A DNA stretch of 9,467 nt from a virus (taxonomy: Duplodnaviria > Heunggongvirae > Uroviricota > Caudoviricetes). The stretch lies in IMG/VR virus record IMGVR_UViG_2695420579_000007; one strand, given 5' to 3'. Positions 1-9,467 of the stretch are shown here, in pieces. Both the position numbers and the translations under genes were made by a program. Below the pieces are notes generated by a model. The model was not told where the DNA came from. It saw nothing but the letters and a program-made list of their open reading frames with translations, and did not search any database. Each line of letters starts with the position of its first letter. The first letter of the stretch is position 1.

Positions 1-162
1 AAACACTATCAATAAGTTGGAGTCATTACCAAACGGTTGAAATGTATGCCGCTACTTACGGGTCCTGTAATCCTCTGAATAAACCAGAGGGAAAAGATGA
101 TTTCGACAAAATTTACCGCTTCTTGGAGGACCGCTATATCAAAAGCTTAGAGGACGCAGGGA

Positions 163-540
163 TCAAATCCCCAGTGAAGTCACCATTGTCCTGAGAACTT
201 GCAGAACGTCATGATCATAACTTCCATCCAAACCGCGACGGCGAATTGCTTCTCGTATTACCGGAAGCAGTTCGCTGGAAATCTCGGTGCATATTTCACC
301 TGATAATACGCTTGGCTCAAGTGAGAATATTGGTGAACTTACGGTCTTGGTCTCGACAGTTTCAGAGTCAGTGCCAACATTATAAAGCTCAACGAAAGCG
401 GTCTTGATTTTCCGGGCCAGATCTTTTGCTGGCTCGCTTGCAATATCTTTCCCGATTTCTCGCAGCACAGAATGCAATGTATGAGCTGCTGTTTTCTGTA
501 CATCAGACGGTAAATCTTTAAATTCCATCGTCAGCCTCAT
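163..540 (-). CDS. hypothetical protein (125 aa; possibly 121 aa from ATG at 528), distal gene of a two-gene early-left cassette
   Basis: ORF in track. Start ATG at 540-538 overlaps the upstream stop (TGATG); an internal ATG at 528 has a better SD (GAGG about 7 nt upstream). Acidic protein with no motif I recognise. Same strand as and downstream of the OL-like operators. Confidence 0.5.
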   Translation of the reverse strand: MRLTMEFKDLPSDVQKTAAHTLHSVLREIGKDIASEPAKDLARKIKTAFVELYNVGTDSETVETKTVSSPIFSLEPSVLSGEICTEISSELLPVIREAIRRRGLDGSYDHDVLQVLRTMVTSLGI

Positions 541-746
541 CAGTCAGTGTTTCTGGCTAACCAGCAACGCGCGCCAGATTCGGTTTTAAACGTTTTGCTT
601 TTGGTATACGTCATGGCGGTAAACGTTCCATCCTGGTTAGGGAACACGCCGCACACCAGAGATTCGTTGTTGCCAAGATCGATAGTATCCATGCTGACCT
701 CATTTCCCCTTAACGCCGGGGTGGCGGAACAAAAAACCTGCTGCAT
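540..746 (-). CDS. small hypothetical protein (68 aa as drawn; more likely 50 aa from ATG at 692)
   Basis: ORF in track. ATG at 746 has a weak RBS; internal ATG at 692-690 is preceded by GAGGT with a 4-nt spacer. Stop TGA (542-540) overlaps the start of the 125-aa gene, suggesting translational coupling. No recognisable family. Confidence 0.4.
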   Translation of the reverse strand: MQQVFCSATPALRGNEVSMDTIDLGNNESLVCGVFPNQDGTFTAMTYTKSKTFKTESGARCWLARNTD

Positions 747-873
747 AGTTAAAGATTGAACCCTGCCGTCATGTTCTTACGCCTCGGGCTGGCTACTTAA
801 CCCCTGACCACTGTCTGGTAACTCGAAGTATTGCCCTGCATTCTGTGGGGCGGGGTGGGTTGACGCCTGAAAC

Positions 874-915
874 AATAGCATCATTATTTTTTTTGATGTA
901 AATAGCATCGCTATT
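874..915. promoter_or_regulatory. OL-like operator pair, probable early-left promoter region
   Basis: Two 15-bp dyads: AATAGC-ATC-ATTATT at 874-888 and the perfect dyad AATAGC-ATC-GCTATT at 901-915, 27 bp centre to centre. Same consensus (AATAGY-N3-RCTATT) as the two dyads between the divergent regulator genes at 2012-2051. Lies between the terminator and the leftward cassette. Confidence 0.5.
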
Positions 916-930
916 GTTTTTTGTTGGGGC

Positions 931-955
931 AAGAAAAAACCACCCTAAGGTGGTT
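931..955 (-). terminator. Rho-independent terminator of the regulator-antitoxin-toxin operon
   Basis: On the minus strand: stem AACCACC / GGTGGTT with a 4-nt loop (938-955), followed by a U-run (TTTTTTCTT, reverse complement of 931-939). Begins 17 nt after the toxin stop at 972. Confidence 0.55.
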
Positions 956-971
956 CTGTCGGCGGGAATAA

Positions 972-1262
972 TTAACTGTTTTTGCCTGGATACTGTCTTC
1001 GAGAATGCACAATATTTACTACTTCTATGCTTGATGCTGTTACTCGGTAAAGGATGATGTAGTTAGGATGAGTTACAATTTCACGAAGACCAAGAACTCG
1101 CTCGCTTGGAGGATACAGGTAAGGATGCTCTGTGAGCGGCAAAACGGATGTTTCAATTCGAATTTTCATTCTGCGTGCTGCCGCGGGATTTTCTTTAGCT
1201 ATGTAGGCTACGATCTGGCGCAAATCATCACGAGCAGATGGTAGCCATAAAACGGGTAACAT
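972..1262 (-). CDS. parE: ParE/RelE-fold type II toxin (96 aa), ParE2-like
   Basis: 96-aa ORF with the characteristic C-terminal region (LREIVTHPNYIILYRV...IEVVNIVHSRR). Start overlaps the upstream antitoxin stop (TAATG). Third gene of a regulator-antitoxin-toxin operon, as in the paaR-paaA-parE systems of E. coli O157 prophages. Confidence 0.85.
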   Translation of the reverse strand: MLPVLWLPSARDDLRQIVAYIAKENPAAARRMKIRIETSVLPLTEHPYLYPPSERVLGLREIVTHPNYIILYRVTASSIEVVNIVHSRRQYPGKNS

Positions 1263-1456
1263 TATTCACCTCTGTGAGTTGCAGCAGCAATTTGGGCAAT
1301 AATTTGTTCCATTTCCGCCATTACCTCATCATGCGGAATCGCCGGGCGGGGATCCGCGAGGCTTGCTGCTACTTTGGCCCGCAGCCATTCGTTGTAACTA
1401 TTTTCTTGCTCAACTGTCTCAAATTCTGAAACCATTGGGGAAAGGACTGTACTCAT
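1262..1456 (-). CDS. paaA: PaaA-like antitoxin (64 aa)
   Basis: Small acidic protein (SPMVSEFETVEQENSYNEWLRAKVA...) immediately upstream of and overlapping the ParE-like toxin gene. AGGAGA SD about 12 nt upstream of ATG 1456. Closely matches PaaA2 antitoxin as I recall it. Confidence 0.8.
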   Translation of the reverse strand: MSTVLSPMVSEFETVEQENSYNEWLRAKVAASLADPRPAIPHDEVMAEMEQIIAQIAAATHRGE

Positions 1457-1475
1457 TTTACATATCTCCTCTGAT

Positions 1476-2006
1476 TTAGGCGCGACGGCCTTTTTGTGCA
1501 GCTAACCACCGCGCAACCGTACGATCCATTGATTCTTTTTTATCTTTCATCTCCTGAAGCATGTGTTCTTGATCTTCTTTCGGAAAAGCTCTGAACGTAT
1601 GGATTAAATCTCGTTCCATCGGCTCTACGGCAAACGGTAGTTCATCCTCTGTTTGTTCTGTGTCTGCTGGTAATGCGACTATGTTATCTTGCTGTGGTTC
1701 TCGACAATACATCCTTGCAATTTGCAGCAAATCTACCATGTCTGGCCTGATTGACTCAGGGGGAACTTTCAGTAAGCCAGCAAACTTTAGAACAGCCTCA
1801 AGGTTTAGTGGGGTTTGACCATTTAGGTAGTGACTTACCGCCCCTTGTGTTGAAAACCCCATAATTTCCGCCGCACGTTCCTGAGTCAATCCCAACTGAG
1901 ATTTCTTTGCCATCCAGATTTCTTTCAGTCTTCTGGCGGCGTTGAGGTCGGTGTCTGACAATGATTTTCTTTTCATACATCCAATTCTAATAAGATTGCT
2001 AATCAC
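1476..2006 (-). CDS. paaR: CI-type HTH (XRE-family) transcriptional regulator, PaaR-like prophage repressor (176 aa; start possibly at the internal Met 11)
   Basis: N-terminal HTH (LTQERAAEIMGFSTQGAVSHYLNG). No S24 peptidase-like C-terminal domain recognisable. First gene of the operon and divergent from the Cro-like gene across an operator-bearing intergenic region. Confidence 0.75.
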   Translation of the reverse strand: MISNLIRIGCMKRKSLSDTDLNAARRLKEIWMAKKSQLGLTQERAAEIMGFSTQGAVSHYLNGQTPLNLEAVLKFAGLLKVPPESIRPDMVDLLQIARMYCREPQQDNIVALPADTEQTEDELPFAVEPMERDLIHTFRAFPKEDQEHMLQEMKDKKESMDRTVARWLAAQKGRRA

Positions 2007-2087
2007 TTTGAAATAGTATCACTATTTACTTTTAAAAATAACAGTGCTATTAATTATGCATTGGTAACACATCACATAGGGCGGATT
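2007..2087. promoter_or_regulatory. OR-like divergent promoter/operator region
   Basis: Perfect dyad AATAGT-ATC-ACTATT at 2012-2026 and near-dyad AATAAC-AGT-GCTATT at 2037-2051, 25 bp apart. Candidate rightward promoter: -35 TTTACT (2025-2030), 17-nt spacer, -10 TATTAAT (2048-2054) overlapping the second dyad. Candidate leftward extended -10 (TGaTACTAT, minus strand) overlapping the first dyad. Confidence 0.45.
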
Positions 2088-2351
2088 ATGAATCTTGGAG
2101 AATATTTGCATCATTTTCATATAACCCAGAGTTCATTTGCTGAGATTGTTGGCGCATCCCAAGGGATGGTCAGCCACGTTATAACGGGGCGTGCAAAACT
2201 TACAGGAGAAAAAATATTACGTTGGTGTGAAGCAACGGGATGGGTGGTGACCCCACATGAGATTGACAGTAAAACCTACCCCAACCCAACTGACGGCTTG
2301 CCTGCTGAGTTTCAGGCTAACACACAACCATCGGCGGGGGTTGATTCATGA
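2088..2351 (+). CDS. ydaS: Cro-like HTH protein (YdaS family), 87 aa
   Basis: Track ORF begins at TTG 2061; I prefer ATG 2088 (MNLGEYL...), which has an SD-like AGGGCGG upstream. HTH segment QSSFAEIVGASQGMVSHVITG. Stop overlaps the next gene start (ATGA at 2348-2351). Confidence 0.7.
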   Translation: MNLGEYLHHFHITQSSFAEIVGASQGMVSHVITGRAKLTGEKILRWCEATGWVVTPHEIDSKTYPNPTDGLPAEFQANTQPSAGVDS

Positions 2352-2773
2352 AAATCAAGCATGAACACATCCGCATGGCGATGAAAGCCTGGGCGCATCC
2401 GGACGGTGAAAAAGTTCCGGCAGCTGAAATAACCAGGGTTTATTTCGAACTGGGAATGACGTTTCCGGTTCTGCATAACGACAGCAAGCACAACACGCTT
2501 TATCTCAACACCCAAAAGATTTTCCGTTGGCTGGATAAAGACACCCCTGACGCTGTTGAAAAAATTCAGGCGTTGTTACCTGCGATCGAAAGGGCAATGC
2601 CACCTCCGCTGGTGGCTCGAATGCGCAGCCACAGTTCAGCTTATTTTCGGGAACTGGTGGAGACGCATGAACGACTGGTGAGAGACGCTGATGATTTTGT
2701 CGCAGTGGCAATCGCCGGTTTCAATCAGATGAACCGTGGTGGCCCGGCAGGAAATGCTGTGGCAGTACATTGA
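2348..2773 (+). CDS. ydaT: YdaT-like protein (141 aa), proposed CII-type regulator of Rac/CP-933P-like prophages
   Basis: N-terminus MKIKHEHI... matches the YdaT family as I recall it. Translationally coupled to the Cro-like gene. Sits where cII sits in lambda. Confidence 0.75.
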   Translation: MKIKHEHIRMAMKAWAHPDGEKVPAAEITRVYFELGMTFPVLHNDSKHNTLYLNTQKIFRWLDKDTPDAVEKIQALLPAIERAMPPPLVARMRSHSSAYFRELVETHERLVRDADDFVAVAIAGFNQMNRGGPAGNAVAVH

Positions 2774-2844
2774 CTGACAATAGCCATATCGAATCGCTCC
2801 CGGCAACTCGTGAGTAAAAAGATTCGGTATCAGAAGAGGTGAGT

Positions 2845-3909
2845 ATGGCTAACGCCTGGCTCAGATTATGGCATGACATGCCAAATGACCCTAAGTGGCG
2901 AACAATTGCCAGGGTGTCAGGGCAGCCAATTGCAACAGTGATGGCAGTGTATATCCACCTCCTGGTGAGCGCGTCACGAAATGTCACGCGAGGTCACATT
3001 GATGTCACGACAGAAGATTTGGCAAGTGCGCTCGACGTGACAGAAGAGGTAATTGATTCAATTTTGCAGACGATGCAGGGGCGGGTACTTGATGGTGATT
3101 TAATCACTGGATGGGAAAAACGCCAGGTGCTTAAAGAGGACAACGGCAATATTTCGCAAACCGCAAAATCTCCTGCAGAGCGCAAGAGGGCGCAGCGAGA
3201 GAGGGAAAGAAAGCGGGAACAAAATGGCGATTGTCACGGCGCGTCACGAAATGTCACGCACATGTCACGACGAGTCACGACAGATACAGATAAAGATACA
3301 GATAAAGAAGATCAAAACACTATGGTCCATGGCGTAAAAAACGCCACGAACCAGGCAGGGGATGTTCAGACCGTCAATCCTGGTCAGCCAGCAGGCTCGA
3401 CACCGGAAGCCGATTCAGCGTATGCGCTGAAAGCCGATTCGGGCGCTGTGCAGCAGGTGATGACCGCAAGGCCGGAGCAATCACTCCAACTGCAGCAGCC
3501 TGAAGCCGATTCCGCCATTCAGCGGGAAGCCGATCGGGTAGCCCCGGAAAACACCGGGCAGCCTGTGGGACGAGTGGATTATCCGGATGTGTTCGAACAG
3601 GTCTGGCGGGAATACCCGTTGCGTGCCGGGGCAAACCCGAAGAAATCCGCATTCAGTGCCTGGAAGGCCAGATTGCGCGAGGGGGTGCCACCAGAGACCA
3701 TGCTGGATGGTGTGAGGCGTTACGCGAGATACCTGGCGGCGACCGGGAAAGCGGGAACGGAATTTGTTCAGCGAGCGACGACGTTTTTTGGGCCGGACCG
3801 GAATTTTGAAAACCCCTGGTTGCTCCCGGTAAGCGGCACGAACAACCAGCGTTGTGTGAATCATATTTCTGAACCGGATACCGAAATTCCGCCGGGATTC
3901 AGGGGGTGA
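2845..3909 (+). CDS. phage replication initiation / replisome organiser protein (O-like), about 354 aa
   Basis: Track ORF starts at GTG 2839; ATG 2845 has GAGGTGA 7 nt upstream. Basic linker (AERKRAQRERERKRE). Two iteron clusters inside the gene. Ends IPPGFRG, 6 nt before the DnaC-like gene. A paralogous C-terminus is seen at 7429-7698. Confidence 0.8.
   Translation: MANAWLRLWHDMPNDPKWRTIARVSGQPIATVMAVYIHLLVSASRNVTRGHIDVTTEDLASALDVTEEVIDSILQTMQGRVLDGDLITGWEKRQVLKEDNGNISQTAKSPAERKRAQRERERKREQNGDCHGASRNVTHMSRRVTTDTDKDTDKEDQNTMVHGVKNATNQAGDVQTVNPGQPAGSTPEADSAYALKADSGAVQQVMTARPEQSLQLQQPEADSAIQREADRVAPENTGQPVGRVDYPDVFEQVWREYPLRAGANPKKSAFSAWKARLREGVPPETMLDGVRRYARYLAATGKAGTEFVQRATTFFGPDRNFENPWLLPVSGTNNQRCVNHISEPDTEIPPGFRG
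2971..3041. repeat. iteron cluster A: four direct GTCAC(G/A) repeats in helical phase plus one inverted copy
   Basis: GTCACG at 2973, 2983 and 3004 and GTCACA at 2993 (spacings 10, 10, 11 bp); inverted CGTGAC at 3036-3041. The 19-mer GCGTCACGAAATGTCACGC (2971-2989) recurs exactly at 3241-3259. Confidence 0.55.
3233..3306. repeat. iteron cluster B (five phased GTCACG repeats) followed by an A-rich 12-bp tandem duplication; candidate replication origin
   Basis: GTCACG at 3233, 3243, 3253, 3264, 3274 (spacings 10, 10, 11, 10 bp), then GATACAGATAAA twice (3283-3294 and 3295-3306). Iterons plus an adjacent A-rich stretch inside the initiator gene parallels lambda ori inside gene O. Confidence 0.5.
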
Positions 3910-3915
3910 TGTGGC

Positions 3916-4662
3916 ATGAAAAACATTGCGGCAGCCGGGGTTCTTGAACGTATTCACAGACTTGCACCACAGGGGGCGGTTCCACCGTACCGGACGGTGG
4001 AGGAGTGGCGGGAATGGCAACTTGCTGAAGGACGAAAACGCAGCGAGGAGATTAACCGCCAGAATCGCCAGTTGCGGGTGGAAAAAATCCTGAATCGTTC
4101 GGGCATCCAGCCTCTGCACAGCAAATGCTCGTTTGCGAATTATCAGGTGCAGAACGACGGGCAAAAATACGCGCTGAGCCAGGCCAAATCCATAGCTGAC
4201 GAACTGATGACCGGGTGCACGAATTTTGTGTTCAGCGGTAAAACCGGCACCGGGAAAAATCACCTTGCAGCGGCGATGGGTAACCGGCTGATGGCGAAGG
4301 GGCGCAGCGTGATTATCGTCACCGAGTCTGATGTCATGAGCGTGTTGCATGACAGCTACGACAACGGCAAATCCGGTGAAAAATTTTTACAGGAGCTTTG
4401 CGGGGTTGATTTGCTGGTCCTGGATGAAATAGGCATTCAGCGGGAGACGAAAAACGAGCAGGTGGTATTGCACCAGATAATTGATCGCCGGACAGCATCA
4501 CTGTGCAGTGTCGGGATGTTAACAAACCTGAATCATGCCGCAATGAGCACGCTTCTTGGTGAGAGGATTATGGACCGCATGACCATGAACGGTTGTCGGT
4601 GGGTGACGTTTAACTGGGATAGCTGGCGTTCAAATGTCAGCTTTCCGGGAGTTGTGAAGTAA
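3916..4662 (+). CDS. DnaC-like helicase loader (IstB-like AAA+ ATPase), prophage replication protein, 248 aa
   Basis: Walker A (SGKTGTGKNHLAAA) and Walker B (LLVLDEIG) motifs. SD GGGGGTGA upstream of ATG 3916. Follows the O-like gene by 6 nt. Confidence 0.9.
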   Translation: MKNIAAAGVLERIHRLAPQGAVPPYRTVEEWREWQLAEGRKRSEEINRQNRQLRVEKILNRSGIQPLHSKCSFANYQVQNDGQKYALSQAKSIADELMTGCTNFVFSGKTGTGKNHLAAAMGNRLMAKGRSVIIVTESDVMSVLHDSYDNGKSGEKFLQELCGVDLLVLDEIGIQRETKNEQVVLHQIIDRRTASLCSVGMLTNLNHAAMSTLLGERIMDRMTMNGCRWVTFNWDSWRSNVSFPGVVK

Positions 4663-4683
4663 TTTTTGTTGGAGGATGTTTTA

Positions 4684-5409
4684 ATGGAAACTGTATTTGA
4701 CGCACTGAAAGCACTGAAAAGAGCCTCTTCACATGTGGTGGCGTCCCGCCTTGGAATCAGCCGTGAAGATGCGGTCAACGAACTGTGGAAACTGAAGCGC
4801 CGTGGTGAAGCGGATAACAAGGGTTCGATGTGGTGGCTGATTCAGGCTGGTGAAAGTGAACCAGTGTCACCGGTACCGAAAGTGACAGCGCAAATGCTGA
4901 CTGAGGCGATTGAACAACATGGCCCACAAACGGCGGATGAGCTGGCACTGATGTTCGGGATTACCTCCCGCCGGGCGAATTCATCGCTGGCCATGGCAAT
5001 CAGCAAAGGGCGTCTGATTCGCGTGAATCAGGGCGGTAAATTTCGGTACTGCATACCGGGCGCTGATTTACCGGCAGAGCCGAAAGCCGCATCCATAGCG
5101 GAAACGGATGGTAAAGTCTTTCCTCAGCCAGCAGGTGTTGCGTTACCGGTACAGGAAGCTGCAACACAGGAAGAAATTAAAACAGAAACTGTGGCGGACA
5201 TTGTGCAGTCGTTGCCATCGTTCACCGAAACGCAAGCGGATGACCTGGTTTTACCATCGCTGCATATGGCAAACCGCGAACTGCGTCGGGCGAAAAGTCA
5301 TGTCCAGAAGTGGGAGCGTGTCTGCGCCGCGTTGCGGGAGCTGAACAAGCACCGGGATATTGTTCGACAGATTGTCGATTCCTCCGGTCGTATTGTGTCG
5401 GAAAAGTGA
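4684..5409 (+). CDS. hypothetical protein, possibly winged-helix, 241 aa
   Basis: Track ORF starts at TTG 4666; ATG 4684 has GGAGGA 9 nt upstream. Follows the DnaC-like gene. No catalytic motif recognised. Confidence 0.6.
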
Positions 5410-5424
5410 TTGCCGGGGGCGCTT

Positions 5425-5556
5425 ATGGCAAAAGTATTTACACAGGAAGAGCGGGAAAAAATTAAGGGGCAGGTTGTTGAACTCGTACGCCAGAGTGGGC
5501 GCGAGACGTTACGACAACGCTCCGATGGAAAGCTTCTGGGGAACGCTGAAAAATGA
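5425..5556 (+). pseudogene. truncated 5' fragment of a small gene (31 native codons), fused out of frame to IS600-derived sequence
   Basis: ATG 5425; MAKVFTQEEREKIKGQVVELVRQSGRETLRQ is native up to 5518, then reads IS600 interior to a stop at 5554-5556. 5467-5518 is identical to 9052-9103, where the rest of the gene continues after the N gap. Confidence 0.6.
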
Positions 5557-5756
5557 GAGCCTGAGCCACTATCGTTTTAATAACCGGGATGAAGCCATCT
5601 CAGTAATACGGGAATACATTGAGATTTTCTACAATCGTCAGCGTCGTCACTCTCGTCTGGGGAATATCTCCCCGGCAGCCTTCAGGGAAAAATATCATCA
5701 GATGGCTGCTTAAAAAAAGAACAAATGGTAGTGTCCGCTATTGCCAGTACACCTCA
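5519..5756 (+). mobile_element. partial IS600 copy: 238-bp right-end fragment in inverted orientation relative to the complete IS600
   Basis: Exact reverse complement of 5758-5995, ending in the IS terminus ...CCTCA at 5756. Carries the last 65 codons of the transposase frame. Its inner boundary is an IS-interior position, not an IS end, so it is not a simple transposition product. Confidence 0.8.
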
Positions 5757-5800
5757 NTGAGGTGTACTGGCAATAGCGGACACTACCATTTGTTCTTTTT

Positions 5801-6619
5801 TTAAGCAGCCATCTGATGATATTTTTCCCTGAAGGCTGCCGGGGAGATATTCCCCAGACGAGAGTGACGACGCTGACGATTGTAGAAAATCTCAATGTAT
5901 TCCCGTATTACTGAGATGGCTTCATCCCGGTTATTAAAACGATAGTGGCTCAGGCTCTCATTTTTCAGCGTTCCCCAGAAGCTTTCCATCGGAGCGTTGT
6001 CGTAACAGTTACCTTTACGCGACATTGATGTTTTCAGACCAGACTGCTCCTGTATGACCCGGTAATCGTATGCGCAGTACTGTGAACCTCGATCAGAGTG
6101 GTGGATTAGCCCGGCAGGTGGGCGCTGGCTCCTGAGCGCCATAAACAGGGCTTTACCTGTCAGCTCTTTTGTCATGCGCTCTCCCATGGCGTAGCCGACA
6201 ATTTCGCACGTATAAACATCTTTGATGCCAGCGAGGTACAACCATCCCTCCTGTGTGGCAACATACGTCAGGTCCGCCACCCAGACCTGATTTGGTGCTG
6301 TAGGAGCGAACGTCTGGTTCAGCAGATTTGGCGCAACTGGCAGATTGTGGTTCGAGTTCGTAGTCGCTCTGAACTTGCGTTTCTGCTTACAGCGTAGCCT
6401 TAGCTCCTTACGAAGACGTGCCAGTCGGTCACGACCAACGATGATGCCATTCTCTGCCAGCTCCGTCTGGAGCCGCCGGGTTCCATATGTTTCGCGAGTG
6501 CGGATATGTGCCACCTTAATCTCCAGTTTTAGCCGCTCATCACTTTGTTTTCTGTCTGAGGGTTCATGCTGTACCCAGTTGTAATAACCGCTCCTGGATA
6601 CACCAAATACCTGACACAT
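5801..6619 (-). CDS. IS600 OrfB (DDE transposase catalytic domain), 272 aa as an independent ORF; expressed as OrfAB fusion by -1 frameshifting
   Basis: The OrfB frame is open upstream of ATG 6619 back through the slippery site. Frame is -1 relative to OrfA. Confidence 0.9.
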   Translation of the reverse strand: MCQVFGVSRSGYYNWVQHEPSDRKQSDERLKLEIKVAHIRTRETYGTRRLQTELAENGIIVGRDRLARLRKELRLRCKQKRKFRATTNSNHNLPVAPNLLNQTFAPTAPNQVWVADLTYVATQEGWLYLAGIKDVYTCEIVGYAMGERMTKELTGKALFMALRSQRPPAGLIHHSDRGSQYCAYDYRVIQEQSGLKTSMSRKGNCYDNAPMESFWGTLKNESLSHYRFNNRDEAISVIREYIEIFYNRQRRHSRLGNISPAAFREKYHQMAA

Positions 6620-6654
6620 CGCTTCAATGGGAAATTGTTGTCGCCATTGTTCGA

Positions 6655-6957
6655 TTAACGCGTATTTTTCAGCGACTCCTGTGCAAAATACGCTGTTGCT
6701 TTTTTTAATATATCTCGCTCAAGGCGAGCTTCATTTAACGCCTTACGCAGTTGCAGAATTTCAGATTCCAGTTCAGCCACCGTGCGGGAACCAGGAGTAC
6801 CGAGCCCTTTTCTGGCGGCGGTAACCCATTGTCCTAAAGTGCCTTCAGGAAGAGATAATCGGGAAGCGCCTTCACTGATCGAAAGTTGATTTTCAAGAAC
6901 CGTTCTGACAGCTTCGGCTTTGAACTCTTTAGAGTAACGTTGGGTTTTTCTGCTCAT
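6655..6957 (-). CDS. IS600 OrfA (IS3-family transposase N-terminal HTH protein), 100 aa
   Basis: 100-aa ORF with HTH and leucine-zipper-like C-terminus (LRKALNEARLERDILKKATAYFA). Contains the frameshift heptamer near its 3' end. Confidence 0.9.
   Translation of the reverse strand: MSRKTQRYSKEFKAEAVRTVLENQLSISEGASRLSLPEGTLGQWVTAARKGLGTPGSRTVAELESEILQLRKALNEARLERDILKKATAYFAQESLKNTR
6700..6706 (-). promoter_or_regulatory. programmed -1 ribosomal frameshift slippery heptamer (A AAA AAA, then G) of IS600
   Basis: Minus strand reads TTA AAA AAA GCA in the OrfA frame. The -1 frame is open from here into OrfB (...ILKK then SNSVFCTGVAEKYALIEQWRQQFPIEAMCQVFG...). Confidence 0.6.
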
Positions 6958-7021
6958 TATTAGCTCCTTCTGATGCCATTCTATTTCAGGAAGGAGTGTC
7001 CGTTAAACTCAGGCTACCTCA

Positions 7022-7698
7022 GGTTATTCGCTTCTGGGCATGGGCGGATCAACAAATGATAGACGGTAATGCAGATTGTAACGCTCGCGGCGTTACAAAA
7101 AGTGCAATAGATCGCATCACTTTTATGTCTGGTTTTGCTGATGCGTTAATTCAGGTTGGATGGCTGGTCGAAAATGACGGAGGGCTTTCTCTACCTAACT
7201 TTGAACGTCATAACGGAAAAAGCTCTAAAAAAAACGGGCGGTTACAAACGAGCGAGTAACAAAAATACGCGAACTGAAACGAAAAGGTAACGCTGCCAGC
7301 GTTACACAAACGGATCAAAAAGCGTTACCAGAGGAAGAGGAAGAGGAAGATCTAAATACTGATCTCCCCCTCGCCAAAAACGAGCGTCTAAAAAATTCGA
7401 GCCGGAGGCTATTGAGCTGCCCGATTGGTTGCCGGAAACACTCTGGCATGAGTGGGTCCGGTTCAGACAGGCATTGCGAAAACCGATTCGAACGGAGCAG
7501 GGCGCTAACGGGGCGATACGGGAACTGGAAAAATTCCGTCAGCAGGGTTTTACACCTGAGCAGGTGATTCGACACAGCATCGCCAATGAATACCAGGGCC
7601 TGTTCGCGCCGAAAGGTGTTCGGCCTGAGACGTTGCTCCGACAGGTTAACACCGTCTCGTTGCCGGACAGTGCGATCCCGCCAGGCTTCAGGGGGTAA
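7022..7698 (+). pseudogene. second O-like replication initiator gene: 5' end removed by IS600 and two frameshifts at poly-A runs
   Basis: Reading frame starts directly at the IS600 boundary (VIRFWAWADQQ..., resembling AWLRLWHDMPND near the N-terminus of the first O-like protein). Frame changes at A8 (7227-7234) and at A6 (7390-7395). C-terminus ends IPPGFRG 6 nt before the DnaC-like gene, exactly as in module 1. No GTCACG iterons. Confidence 0.7.
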
Positions 7699-7704
7699 CG
7701 GACC

Positions 7705-8451
7705 ATGAAAAATATTGCGACAGGCGGCGTTCTGGAACGCATCCGCCGACTGACCCCGCCACATGTAACCGCCCCATTCAGAACGGTAGCGGAGTGGCGC
7801 GAGTGGCAACTTGCTGAAGGCCAGAAACGTAGCGAGGAGATCAACCGCCTGAATCGCCAGTTGCGGGTGGAAAAAATTCTGAATCGCTCAGGCATCCAGC
7901 CGTTGCACCGTAAATGCTCGTTTGCGAATTACCAGGTGCAGAACGACGGCCAGCGATACGCGTTAAGCCAGGCGAAATCCATCGCCGATGAACTGATGAC
8001 CGGGTGTACAAATTTTGCGTTCAGCGGAAAACCTGGTACCGGGAAGAATCACTTAGCGGCAGCTATCGGGAATCGCCTGCTGAAAGACGGTCAGACAGTG
8101 ATTGTGGTTACCGTGGCTGATGTTATGAGCGCCCTGCACGCCAGCTATGACGACGGGCAGTCAGGCGAAAAATTTTTGCGGGAGCTGTGCGAAGTGGATC
8201 TGCTGGTTCTTGATGAAATTGGCATTCAGCGCGAGACGAAAAACGAGCAGGTGGTGCTGCACCAGATTGTTGATCGCCGGACAGCGTCGATGCGCAGCGT
8301 GGGGATGCTGACAAACCTGAACTATGAGGTGATGAAAACATTGCTCGGCGAGCGGGTGATGGATCGCATGGTCATGAACGGCGGGCGCTGGGTGAATTTT
8401 AACTGGGAGAGCTGGCGTCCGAATGTTAGCCATTCGAGGGTTGTTAAGTAG
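7705..8451 (+). CDS. DnaC-like helicase loader, second paralogue (248 aa)
   Basis: Collinear with the 3916-4662 protein at high identity (roughly 85% by eye); Walker A SGKPGTGKNHLAAA and Walker B LLVLDEIG. Confidence 0.9.
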   Translation: MKNIATGGVLERIRRLTPPHVTAPFRTVAEWREWQLAEGQKRSEEINRLNRQLRVEKILNRSGIQPLHRKCSFANYQVQNDGQRYALSQAKSIADELMTGCTNFAFSGKPGTGKNHLAAAIGNRLLKDGQTVIVVTVADVMSALHASYDDGQSGEKFLRELCEVDLLVLDEIGIQRETKNEQVVLHQIVDRRTASMRSVGMLTNLNYEVMKTLLGERVMDRMVMNGGRWVNFNWESWRPNVSHSRVVK

Positions 8452-8465
8452 TTTCAGGAGGATTT

Positions 8466-8824
8466 ATGGCGAAACCTTTTACTCCCGAACAGCGGGAAGA
8501 ACTGAAGACGCGAATTGTGGAACTCGTGCATCAGGACGGTCGGGTCACGATTCGGCAGTTGTCAGATGAAACAGGTATCAGTCGTGCGTCTGTCGGTCGC
8601 TTATGCATAGAACTGGTCGCAAGTGGTGATGTATATAATTCTGGCTACGGCTTATTCCCGTCTGAACAGGCTCGCAAGGACTGGCAAAGCGCCCGCAAAA
8701 AACTCTCGAGAGTAAAGGTGAGGAAACCGGTTGTTGTTGATCCGGACCTTATCTGGTCATTACCTGACGGAGAAATACGCCGCTACGACAGGCGCCTGAA
8801 TATAATCTGTCGCGAGTGCCGGAA
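8466..8824 (+). CDS. small HTH-like hypothetical protein, paralogue of the gene truncated at 5425; 3' end lost in the N gap
   Basis: ATG 8466 with CAGGAGGA SD. N-terminus MAKPFTPEQREELKTRIVELV. C-terminal half nearly identical to the post-gap copy (ELVASGDVYNSGYGLFPSEQARKDWQ...PDLIWSLPDGEIRRYDR...IICRECRK). Confidence 0.65.
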
Positions 8825-9051
8825 NNNNNNNNNNNNNNNNNNNNNNNNNNNNNNNNNNNNNNNNNNNNNNNNNNNNNNNNNNNNNNNNNNNNNNNNNNNN
8901 NNNNNNNNNNNNNNNNNNNNNNNNNNNNNNNNNNNNNNNNNNNNNNNNNNNNNNNNNNNNNNNNNNNNNNNNNNNNNNNNNNNNNNNNNNNNNNNNNNNN
9001 NNNNNNNNNNNNNNNNNNNNNNNNNNNNNNNNNNNNNNNNNNNNNNNNNNN
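8825..9051. other. assembly gap (227 N)
   Basis: Run of n characters. The flanks are two near-identical gene copies, so this looks like a repeat-induced scaffold break. Confidence 1.
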
Positions 9052-9432
9052 GGGCAGGTTGTTGAACTCGTACGCCAGAGTGGGCGCGAGACGTTACGAC
9101 AACTGGAAGCTAAAACCGGGGCGACAAGATATTTAATAAGCGTTCTCGCCAGAGAGCTGGTTGCCAGTGGGGATGTATACAACTCTGGCTACGGGTTATT
9201 CCCGTCTGAACAGGCTCGTAAGGACTGGCAAAACGCCCGCAAAAAACTCTCGAGGGCAAAGCTGAAGAAACCATCTGTGGTTGATCCGGACCTTATCTGG
9301 TCATTACCGGACGGAGAAATACGCCGCTACGACAGACATCAGAACATAATCTGTCGCGAGTGCCGGAAGAGTGAAGTTATGCAGCGTGTACCGGCTTTCT
9401 ATCAGGGTGATTTTCAGGAGGCGGTACTGTGA
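9052..9432 (+). CDS. 3' portion of the small HTH-like gene whose 5' end is at 5425-5518; partial because the 5' end falls in the gap
   Basis: 9052-9103 is identical to 5467-5518 and the frame continues (GQVVELVRQSGRETLRQLEAKTGATRYLISVLARELVASGDVYNSG...) to TGA at 9430-9432. Confidence 0.6.
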   Translation, partial: GQVVELVRQSGRETLRQLEAKTGATRYLISVLARELVASGDVYNSGYGLFPSEQARKDWQNARKKLSRAKLKKPSVVDPDLIWSLPDGEIRRYDRHQNIICRECRKSEVMQRVPAFYQGDFQEAVL

Positions 9433-9467
9433 GTGAAATTAGCTATCAGGCTTCAATTACCGCTGGC
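9429..9467 (+). CDS. 5' end of a downstream gene running off the window
   Basis: GTG 9429 overlaps the preceding stop (GTGA), with CAGGAGG 8 nt upstream. Open frame VSEISYQASITAG to the window end. Confidence 0.35.
   Translation, partial: MSEISYQASITAG

Follow-up and report, generated by a model that had tools for sequence, protein, structure and literature searches.

Structures in which two ends of an insertion sequence (IS) lie close together are known from several systems. An engineered 246-bp interrupted palindrome studied in E. coli lacZ by the Leach laboratory leads to hairpin formation, SbcCD cleavage and inverted chromosome duplications (PMC3315005). In the IS3 family, circle junctions, tandem dimers and IS911-type targeted insertions bring IS ends together with few bases between them, and these junctions connect IRL to IRR of complete elements through a spacer of target-duplication length. 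Similar arrangements can also be made by sequencing and assembly. Draft genomes assembled with Velvet, SSPACE and GapFiller, of which the latter two are greedy tools that can make false joins, contain false scaffold joins at multi-copy IS, recognizable by contigs that end at IS termini, N placeholders and distant blocks placed side by side; Shigella sonnei is known for such IS-fragmented short-read assemblies (mean 405 contigs per draft) (PMC5320598). Furthermore, sonication libraries yield chimeric reads at cis- and trans-inverted repeats, and the inverted chimeras of the PDSM or MDA type join a sequence to the reverse strand of another through short perfect complementarity (PMC10908179).

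The window analysed here is the whole 9,467-nt stretch of IMG/VR virus record IMGVR_UViG_2695420579_000007. A repeat finder detected inverted-repeat arms at 5508-5756 and 5758-6006, which are 249 nt each, 100% complementary and 1 nt apart; the palindrome spans 499 bases, and its centre base, 5757, is N. The left arm (plus strand) consists of the last 249 nt of IS600, comprising the OrfB C-terminus and IRR, with 100% identity to IS600 copies, and it terminates precisely at the IS end (...CACCTCA, 5756). For 5700-5756, thousands of E. coli records contain annotated IS600 copies with 100% identity. The right arm (minus strand) is, in window order, the first 249 nt of a complete IS600 at 5758-7020. 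A perfect inverted repeat of 249 nt cannot have arisen by chance, and the arms are perfectly complementary because both are copies of one multi-copy insertion sequence. The original prediction had described two IS600 right ends lying head-to-head around one ambiguous base, with the left copy truncated and tied to a truncated phage gene via an 11-nt microhomology. Both parts of this description were correct: the 11-mer lies at 5508-5518, and its reverse complement (GTTGTCGTAAC on the plus strand, within the minus-strand IS600 copy) lies at 5996-6006, where it forms the outer limit of the right arm.

The structure resembles the lacZ palindrome in being a long inverted repeat in an enterobacterial chromosome. 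However, the lacZ palindrome exists as real DNA, is not as long and contains a spacer, whereas the arms here are 249 nt long, the centre is a 1-nt N, and the whole is unsupported as continuous DNA. As in the IS3-family junctions, IS ends abut with few bases between them, but here IRR faces IRR, one partner is a 249-nt fragment, and one N takes the place of the spacer; the end-to-end junction expected for IS600, namely IRL-IRR of complete elements with a 3-bp spacer, was not what we found. Instead, the window is very probably part of a scaffolded short-read draft of S. sonnei, in which the palindrome was made by assembly and does not correspond to continuous DNA. The 499-base palindrome is almost certainly no real piece of a chromosome. 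It is an ordinary artefact, in which two contigs, each ending at an IS600 repeat boundary, were joined.

The symmetry axis carries much of the evidence. Since the base at 5757 is N, this position was never sequenced, and no determined sequence crosses the axis, which represents a scaffold joint. In SSPACE and ABySS, a single N is the convention for neighbours with no measurable gap and no overlap. For a genuine long palindrome, determined sequence through the axis would be expected, together with arm flanks that are genomic neighbours or a structure that recurs in relatives; the window has N at the axis, its arm flanks are not neighbours in finished genomes (see below), and the palindrome structure was absent from the finished S. 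sonnei genomes compared, as well as from 5,426 E. coli genomes, GTDB representatives and JGI metagenomes. As a point against our reading, the N might conceivably reflect an ambiguous consensus where an odd-length palindrome has its centre, and not a gap placeholder, because strand reads of such a palindrome disagree at the central base only. The N would have this meaning if the palindrome were real, with a truncated and a full IS600 abutting right end to right end after an aberrant IS600 event and a subsequent microhomology deletion. Such an event could have been the targeting of a resident terminal repeat, a synapsis of IRR with IRR, or a hairpin or snap-back at a transposase-cut end; IS911, also of the IS3 family, is reportedly able to insert beside its own terminal repeats, which counts in favour. 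We consider such an origin highly improbable. The lacZ example does indicate that a 246-bp interrupted palindrome is maintainable in the E. coli chromosome, but SbcCD would be expected to act strongly on a near-perfect palindrome of 499 bp (PMC3315005 and, in part, general background).

The real-palindrome explanation also draws on two finished E. coli genomes, 2013C-4830 and 2012C-4227, which carry a natural IS600 IRR-IRR junction (locus L025, 2501-2577). There, a 37-nt IS600 right-end fragment is followed by 3 nt (GAG) and then by the right end of a full IS600, head-to-head. The same two right ends face each other as in the window, and the left copy is likewise truncated, so head-to-head IS600 ends are biologically not impossible, which is a further point against our reading. 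In contrast to the window, this junction has arms of only 37 nt and a determined 3-nt spacer, and it stands in finished genomes. Directly next to the truncated copy lies a further element of the IS3 family, which from its ends we take to be IS629-like, and no target duplication that would support targeted insertion was present at the junction (flanks GAG vs CTG). Both the length of these arms and the spacer speak against a real palindrome in the window, where 1 nt stands in place of the 3 nt seen in the IS600 target duplication and in the natural example. In addition, an exact scan for IRR-N{0,12}-IRR gave no hit in GTDB species representatives and JGI metagenomes, collections that hold few Shigella drafts. 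A variant in which the palindrome exists in at least some cells would have IS600 transposase cut or nick a right end, the end close into a hairpin or be copied by snap-back synthesis, and a template switch at the 11-nt microhomology link the inverted IS600 end to the DUF977 gene of the prophage described below; this, too, is very improbable.

The arrangement of the whole window is that of a scaffold. It consists of three blocks and has only two N features, namely 5757 and a run of 227 N at 8825-9051, with non-collinear sequences on either side of the latter. Note that the second N feature, as well as a 52-nt duplication beside it, had been missed in the original prediction. Block 1 (1-5518, plus strand) belongs to a Rac-like/lambdoid prophage of S. 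sonnei, here termed prophage A, and is 100% identical over 5518 nt to complete chromosomes including Ss046 (CP000038). Its last feature is the start of a DUF977 gene (5425-5518, plus strand; first 31 codons), which is cut at 5518 and continues, on translation, as a 43-aa chimeric ORF ending at 5556. In complete genomes, DUF977 is intact at the corresponding position and encodes 140 aa. The truncated gene is therefore DUF977, starting at 5425; the 241-aa gene named in the original prediction is DUF1627, which lies upstream and is intact.

The remainder of the DUF977 gene was found in block 3 (9052-9467, plus strand), which runs from DUF977 codon 15 to the stop codon at 9430-9432 and then into the start of the next gene. 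Blocks 1 and 3 overlap exactly (100%) by 52 nt, 5467-5518 being repeated on the same strand at 9052-9103, directly after the 227-N gap. This 52-mer occurred once per prophage A locus in complete genomes (11552-11603) and was absent from the loci of a second prophage, prophage B, among the loci fetched. In nine complete S. sonnei genomes, blocks 1 and 3 were both 100% identical to one uninterrupted locus, where they overlap by 52 nt, and for the joined sequence 5100-5518 + 9104-9467, a single unbroken alignment covering 100% of the length was obtained in 1,885 complete E. coli records. These results show that block 3 is the true continuation of block 1. Redundant k-1 overlaps of this kind between neighbouring graph contigs are a feature of IS-fragmented short-read drafts; in contrast, a 52-nt redundancy between blocks 1 and 3 could not be created by transposition or recombination, which weighs against a real palindrome.

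We also considered block 3 as a continuation of block 2 across the 227-N gap. Position 8824 is equivalent to prophage A coordinate 9368, and block 3 resumes 316 nt earlier, at the equivalent of codon 15 of the paralogous gene; this backstep, together with an identity of block 3 to prophage B of only ~90%, led us to reject the continuation. The 227-N run might be masking instead of an original scaffold gap, one sequence collection being described as having some stretches masked as N runs, and the argument from non-collinearity is independent of that.

Block 2 (5758-8824) starts with the complete IS600 (5758-7020, minus strand; 1263 nt). Its termini have the TG...CA form of terminal inverted repeats in an element of ~1.26 kb (TGAGGT.../...ACCTCA), with TGAGGTGTACTGG... 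at 5758 and ...CAGGCTACCTCA at 7020, and 23 full-length IS600 copies in the fetched loci have the same limits. The predicted OrfA (6655-6957, minus strand) has the Pfam domain HTH_Tnp_1, and the predicted OrfB (5801-6619, minus strand) has HTH_21, rve, rve_3 and rve_2. Overlapping frames for an HTH-containing OrfA and an OrfB with a DDE integrase core, expressed through a programmed -1 frameshift, would be expected of IS600, and in two loci (L001 and L002) the annotation of matching copies reads 'IS3-like element IS600 family transposase, programmed frameshift'. The element is followed by prophage B DNA (7021-8824, plus strand), containing the 3' part of an IS600-interrupted replication gene, ATPase_B (7705-8451, plus strand; Pfam) and the first 119 codons of the paralogue DUF977_B (8466-8824, plus strand). 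The range 5758-8824 aligned as one piece, with at least 99.9% identity, to complete S. sonnei genomes (e.g., L021 and L024 at 8054-11120).

In the complete S. sonnei genomes, this IS600 copy is flanked by a 3-bp target-site duplication (GGT, IS600, GGT). Specifically, it is preceded by ...GGGAAGGT and followed by GGTTATTCG, the uninterrupted target being GGGAAGGTTATTCG, and the replication gene without IS600 was seen in locus L003. The native left flank of prophage B, directly before IS600, reads ...GCATTAGGGAAGGT, and the base preceding the element, at the position of the axis N, is the T that closes the GGT target duplication. Of the two GGT copies, the window retains the right-hand one (7021-7023) only, and N plus the second IS600 arm replace the left one. 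Because the copy is flanked by GGT in finished genomes, the true neighbour of 5758 is prophage B DNA and not a second IS600. Block 2 is thereby shown to be a genuine insertion of IS600 into prophage B.

On the chromosome CP104423.1, the coordinates are 2.19-2.21 Mb for prophage A and 3.08-3.10 Mb for prophage B. The palindrome is thus flanked by sequences from loci ~885 kb apart and in opposite relative orientation, which is difficult to reconcile with a real palindrome. As in the false joins at multi-copy IS mentioned above, blocks separated by N derive from loci that are not adjacent in finished genomes (block 2 from the other prophage), true neighbours are split (blocks 1 and 3 are contiguous in nine genomes) and overlap redundantly by 52 nt, and contig ends (5756 and 5758) coincide with the IS600 terminus. 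The original prediction had favoured an assembly artefact or chimeric read over real illegitimate recombination, and this preference is borne out by the N at the axis, the second N gap, the distance between the flanks, and the interrupted gene, which is intact in finished genomes and resumes at 9052 with the 52-nt overlap. One refinement is that two separate events are involved: the axis at 5757 is a scaffold join, and the inner junction at 5518/5519 needs reads that carry a chimeric or a rare real microhomology junction.

The inner junction lies at the microhomology GTTACGACAAC (5508-5518, plus strand), 11 nt common to the DUF977 gene and IS600 nt 1015-1025. Prophage A and IS600 share only three 11-mers and no 12-mer, and the probability that a random join shows an identity of at least 11 nt is ~3e-6. 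A simple new IS600 insertion in DUF977 was rejected, as 5519 is internal to IS600 (nt 1026) and no IS end. The junction resembles the PDSM or MDA-type inverted chimeras, in that the sequence is joined to the reverse strand of another through short perfect complementarity, here the longest available; on the other hand, published PDSM chimeras are mostly in cis and within a few hundred bases, whereas the partner here is a multi-copy IS elsewhere, i.e., in trans (PMC10908179). A chimeric path probably existed in the reads, either as a library chimera or as a rare real microhomology event.

The latter would apply if the isolate, or some of the cultured cells, truly carried the inner junction, with the axis still a scaffold join. 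Under this explanation, which we regard as unlikely, the interval between the two 11-nt repeats was tandemly duplicated when these repeats exchanged unequally or slipped. Finished chromosomes carry the 11-mers of the prophage A DUF977 gene and the prophage B IS600 as direct repeats ~885 kb apart, and in the observed junction, sequence from upstream of the B repeat runs through the repeat into what lies downstream of the A repeat, as expected of the novel joint. Both the native (9093-9104) and the novel (5508-5519) junctions are in the assembly; a duplication keeps all native junctions and therefore fits the intact junction in block 3. The position of the junction at a microhomology of maximal length also agrees with it. 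Nevertheless, RecA-independent exchange at 11 nt across 885 kb is rare, and any IS600 copy may have taken part. Moreover, 5,426 complete E. coli genomes lacked the junction, and an exact scan did not detect it in the GTDB species representatives and JGI metagenomes, where few Shigella drafts make the negative a weak one; an exact-protein look-up found neither the 43-aa chimeric ORF nor a 117-aa OrfB-tail ORF on record. In contrast, the formation of chimeras during library preparation, where short sequences are inverted or complementary, is documented (PMC10908179).

The inner junction could alternatively be algorithmic only, if a scaffolder or merger fused neighbouring contigs on an 11-nt end identity with no read involved. 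The break at 5518 is the end of the 52-nt overlap, and block 1 may thus originally have ended in GTTACGACAAC; scaffolders do join neighbouring contigs whose ends overlap by a short stretch, as with the -n option of SSPACE. However, the default minimum overlap of SSPACE is 15 nt. This origin would also require a 249-nt IS600 contig beginning exactly at the 11-mer, and among 36 copies no polymorphism that would make such a node was present at or next to 6007. It leaves the graph break at 5518 unexplained, as the fetched loci contain no second copy of the 52-mer. Taken together, we find the algorithmic origin improbable. Note that a 249-nt arm as a graph node bounded by an IS600 polymorphism near 6007 was rejected in its own right, the nearest variable site being 6042 (36 copies).

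We therefore return to an assembly artefact fed by junction-carrying reads, and the most probable course of events is as follows. A side branch would have left the path of the prophage A DUF977 gene at 5518/5519 in the de Bruijn graph, leading via the shared 11-nt word into the last 238 nt of IS600. This branch would have split the DUF977 gene into two contigs overlapping by k-1 = 52 nt, corresponding to k = 53. In line with this, the start of block 3 at 9052 equals 9104 - 52, the first native-specific 53-mer if the graph branches at 5518/5519. The upstream contig would then have grown along the side branch and halted precisely where IS600 ends, since the multi-copy repeat opens there into many flanks; block 2 would start at the same terminus for the same reason. 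Subsequently, a greedy scaffolder would have set both contigs end to end. Since the ends are reverse complements without overlap, the contigs were not mergeable, and a single N would have been written between them. The side branch must then have come from reads carrying the junction, most likely chimeric library molecules annealed at the 11 complementary nucleotides; a real rearrangement at the microhomology, present at low frequency in the cultured cells, is a less likely source.

The nature of the assembler, k = 53 and whatever led the scaffolder to set block 2 between blocks 1 and 3 are inferred. Two observations do not fit this course readily. The end of contig 2 at 8824 is unexplained by a k = 53 graph with the two known paralogues, and ordinary forward-reverse read pairs from IS600 alone would not back the orientation of the join. 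A third paralogue with the 52-mer, which could have been another reason for the contig break at 5518, was not found in the fetched prophage A and B loci.

The locus is chiefly of value as a quality-control example for IS-rich genomes such as those of Shigella. Scaffolded short-read drafts can carry spurious palindromes, gene truncations and prophage fusions that resemble exotic recombination, and they can be exposed simply by a lone N on the axis of symmetry, a k-1 stretch present twice and a comparison with finished genomes. The DUF977 truncation and the linkage of prophages A and B in this record should not be used for gene-content or synteny analyses. If the inner junction were true, it would merely be one more microhomology rearrangement. 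In the very unlikely case that the palindrome were true, it would suggest an unrecognised side reaction of the IS3 family; a hairpin-type or IRR-IRR product lies outside the accepted copy-out/paste-in pathway of this family.

Apart from the DUF977 gene, block 1 carries further genes, assigned from Pfam and the gene tables. It encodes YdaT (2348-2773), a replisome organizer (2839-3909), a DnaC/IstB-like ATPase (3916-4662) and the intact DUF1627 protein (4666-5409), as well as a ParE/PaaA2 toxin-antitoxin pair with an HTH repressor.

The only long inverted repeat found in the window by the repeat finder has arms at 5508-5756 and 5758-6006, which are 249 nt each, 100% complementary and one base apart, the base between them (5757, hereafter the axis) being N. 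These features agree with the original prediction, which described two IS600 right ends placed head-to-head around one ambiguous base. Both arms are the IS600 right end, and 5700-5756 was 100% identical to IS600 copies annotated in thousands of E. coli records. A perfect 249-nt inverted repeat is far beyond chance, and it is present here because both arms copy one multi-copy insertion sequence. The 11-bp microhomology that had also been predicted was recovered: GTTACGACAAC occupies 5508-5518, the outermost end of the left arm, where it is common to the arm and the incoming phage gene, and its reverse complement lies at 5996-6006 in the right arm.

Ns occur at only two places in the window, singly at 5757 and as a run of 227 at 8825-9051, and split it into blocks 1 (1-5756), 2 (5758-8824) and 3 (9052-9467). 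Block 1 is the early region of a Rac-like/lambdoid prophage (prophage A), with YdaT (2348-2773), a replisome organizer (2839-3909), a DnaC/IstB-like ATPase (3916-4662), DUF1627 (4666-5409) and a DUF977 gene that begins at 5425 and of which only the first 31 codons are present. Besides a full IS600, block 2, from a second prophage of the same chromosome (prophage B), contains the 3' portion of another replication gene and paralogues of the ATPase (7705-8451) and the DUF977 gene (8466-8824; first 119 codons only). Block 3 takes up the prophage A DUF977 gene at codon 15 and continues to the stop codon (9430-9432). The first 52 nt of block 3 (9052-9103) are 100% identical to 5467-5518, the 52 nt ending exactly at the IS600 junction (repeat finder, family D6). 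The 227-N gap is flanked by paralogous parts of two different DUF977 genes, and the join across 8825-9051 is collinear with no finished genome. The run might be a mask instead of an original gap; the argument from non-collinearity is independent of its origin.

Exact-protein look-up of the block 1 ATPase led to complete S. sonnei chromosomes, including Ss046 (CP000038). In nine of these chromosomes, window 1-5518 was 100% identical to locus positions 6086-11603 and window 9052-9467 to positions 11552-11967, indicating that block 3 directly follows block 1 in real genomes, with exactly the duplicated 52 nt as their overlap. In these chromosomes the DUF977 gene is intact (140 aa), and a synthetic join of 5100-5518 and 9104-9467 gave an unbroken end-to-end alignment in 1,885 complete E. 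coli records. The prophage B locus, reached via the block 2 ATPase, was found in the same chromosomes as prophage A, and the entire 5758-8824 aligned to it in one piece at at least 99.9%. On CP104423.1, prophage A occupies 2.19-2.21 Mb, and prophage B, with the opposite relative orientation, occupies 3.08-3.10 Mb. That block 3 continues block 2 was rejected: 8824 is equivalent to prophage A coordinate 9368, the start of block 3 falls 316 nt before this point in the paralogous gene, and the identity of block 3 to prophage B is only about 90%. The two prophages share an exact 91-nt run from window 9434 (from 11934 in comparison locus L005 and from 11186 in L015), and their identity in the roughly 700 nt that follow is about 92%. 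Such shared stretches likely tangle short-read graphs, and the one near 9434 may have helped to link block 2 to block 3. In another S. sonnei chromosome (GCA_006370445.1, VFAD01000001.1), the window alignment ends at 5049 (about 11135-11146 of the fetched locus); its prophage A is a real deletion variant, without DUF1627 and DUF977 and with a truncated methyltransferase gene immediately after the break.

No determined sequence crosses the axis, and both contigs bearing the arms end exactly at the IS600 terminus. These contigs are about 885 kb apart in finished genomes, and block 3, the true neighbour of block 1, is displaced 3.5 kb downstream with the redundant 52-nt overlap, a flanking duplication that no transposition or recombination product would leave. 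The palindrome is thus almost certainly a scaffolding juxtaposition and not a real feature; the testable signs of a scaffold artefact were found in it, and the axis N, the distant flanks and the redundancy bear out the original preference for a chimeric read or assembly artefact. Assemblers would halt at the IS600 terminus, where a multi-copy repeat fans into many flanks, and the contig ends, being reverse complements without overlap, would not be merged and would receive a placeholder N. We infer the assembler, k value and scaffolder of the record. The tools of one widely used bacterial pipeline (Velvet, then SSPACE and GapFiller) are described as greedy and capable of false joins, and S. sonnei is listed there among the most fragmented species, with a mean of 405 contigs (PMC5320598).

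A complete IS600 (5758-7020), with termini TGAGGT... and ...ACCTCA, begins with the right arm and encodes on the minus strand OrfA (6655-6957; HTH_Tnp_1 match) and OrfB (5801-6619; HTH_21, rve, rve_3 and rve_2 matches). In finished S. sonnei genomes, this IS600 is a simple insertion with ...GGGAAGGT before and GGTTATTCG after it, and the uninterrupted homologue of the target reads GGGAAGGTTATTCG, indicating a 3-bp GGT target duplication. In the true sequence, 5758 therefore adjoins prophage B DNA, and a T would stand at "5757". All tests run on 5758-7020 (domains, ends, length and 3-bp duplication) identified it as IS600. In S. sonnei 53G (HE616528.1; 4469-6901 of the fetched locus), two IS600 copies of the same orientation lie immediately side by side: the first, which is complete, runs to 5734, and the next, without its first 96 nt or so, starts at 5735, making a head-to-tail pair with one partner truncated.

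It is very improbable that the isolate carries a real palindrome with 249-nt arms. Natural head-to-head IS600 right ends do occur in the finished genomes of E. coli 2013C-4830 (NZ_CP027325.1; 2501-2577 of locus L025) and 2012C-4227, where a 37-nt IS600 right-end fragment is followed by GAG and a full IS600 right end. However, the spacer there is determined (3 nt, GAG) and the arms are only 37 nt, whereas the window has an N and 249-nt arms; moreover, the truncated fragment directly adjoins the end of another IS3-family element, whose inverted repeats lie at 1191-1215 and 2476-2500 of L025. No matching 3-bp target duplication was found at the natural junction (GAG vs CTG), which may be a relic of IS600 insertion beside a resident IS600 end. 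Against a real palindrome in the window stand its axis N, its 1-nt rather than 3-nt spacer, the non-adjacent flanks and the 52-nt redundancy, as well as the known fate of long palindromes in E. coli: hairpins form even at a 246-bp interrupted palindrome and are processed by SbcCD, and inverted duplications can result (PMC3315005). None of the marks of a genuine palindrome (an unbroken sequence, flanks that are neighbours, recurrence) was present in the window structure, which also differs from an IS3-family end-to-end junction, where opposite ends of complete elements would face each other across 3 bp.

The inner junction (5518/5519), where the DUF977 gene meets IS600, was rejected as an IS insertion because 5519 is IS600-internal (nt 1026 of 1263). 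Prophage A and IS600 have only three 11-mers in common, including GTTACGACAAC, and no 12-mer; about 80% of shuffled IS600 sequences shared at least one 11-mer with prophage A, and such sharing is expected by chance. The probability of a random join landing on at least 11 nt of identity is only about 3e-6, indicating that the junction was made by an annealing- or overlap-dependent process. Given a k=53 de Bruijn branch at 5518/5519, the block 3 start (9052, that is, 9104 minus 52) is the first native-specific 53-mer start, and the left arm start (5508) is the first 53-mer common to the chimeric path and genuine IS600. Both starts fit a graph built from reads of which some carried the junction; at the resulting side path the DUF977 gene would break into two contigs, the upstream one being extended along that path as far as the IS600 terminus. 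The k=53 model does not account for the block 2 end at 8824. A less likely alternative is that the algorithm alone merged two contigs on 11 nt; among 36 IS600 copies, no polymorphism was found that would make a 249-nt node ending at the 11-mer. The junction reads could derive from a rare real event, a tandem-duplication joint: on finished chromosomes the two 11-mers lie about 885 kb from each other as direct repeats, and, judged from the coordinates, the joint has the topology of a tandem-duplication junction, with which all native junctions would stay intact. We favour a technical origin of these reads, as library chimeras, because the junction was absent from 5,426 complete E. coli genomes and, in exact scans, from GTDB representative genomes and JGI metagenomes, and because exact-protein look-ups found the chimeric ORFs (43 and 117 aa) on no record. 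Chimeric reads at cis- and trans-inverted repeats have been reported for sonication libraries (PMC10908179), in line with this origin.

Elsewhere in block 1, GTCACG motifs with 10-nt spacing (e.g., GTCACGAAATGTCACGCGAGGTCACATTGATGTCACGAC) cluster at 2973-3011 and 3233-3281 within the replisome-organizer gene (repeat finder, family D4), and look like putative origin iterons of a lambda-O-type initiator gene. In addition, a predicted three-gene toxin-antitoxin module occupies 972-2006 on the minus strand in the prophage immunity region, consisting of a ParE-family toxin (972-1262), a PaaA2-type antitoxin (1262-1456) and an HTH regulator (1476-2006), as labelled by Pfam from the identical genes in L005.
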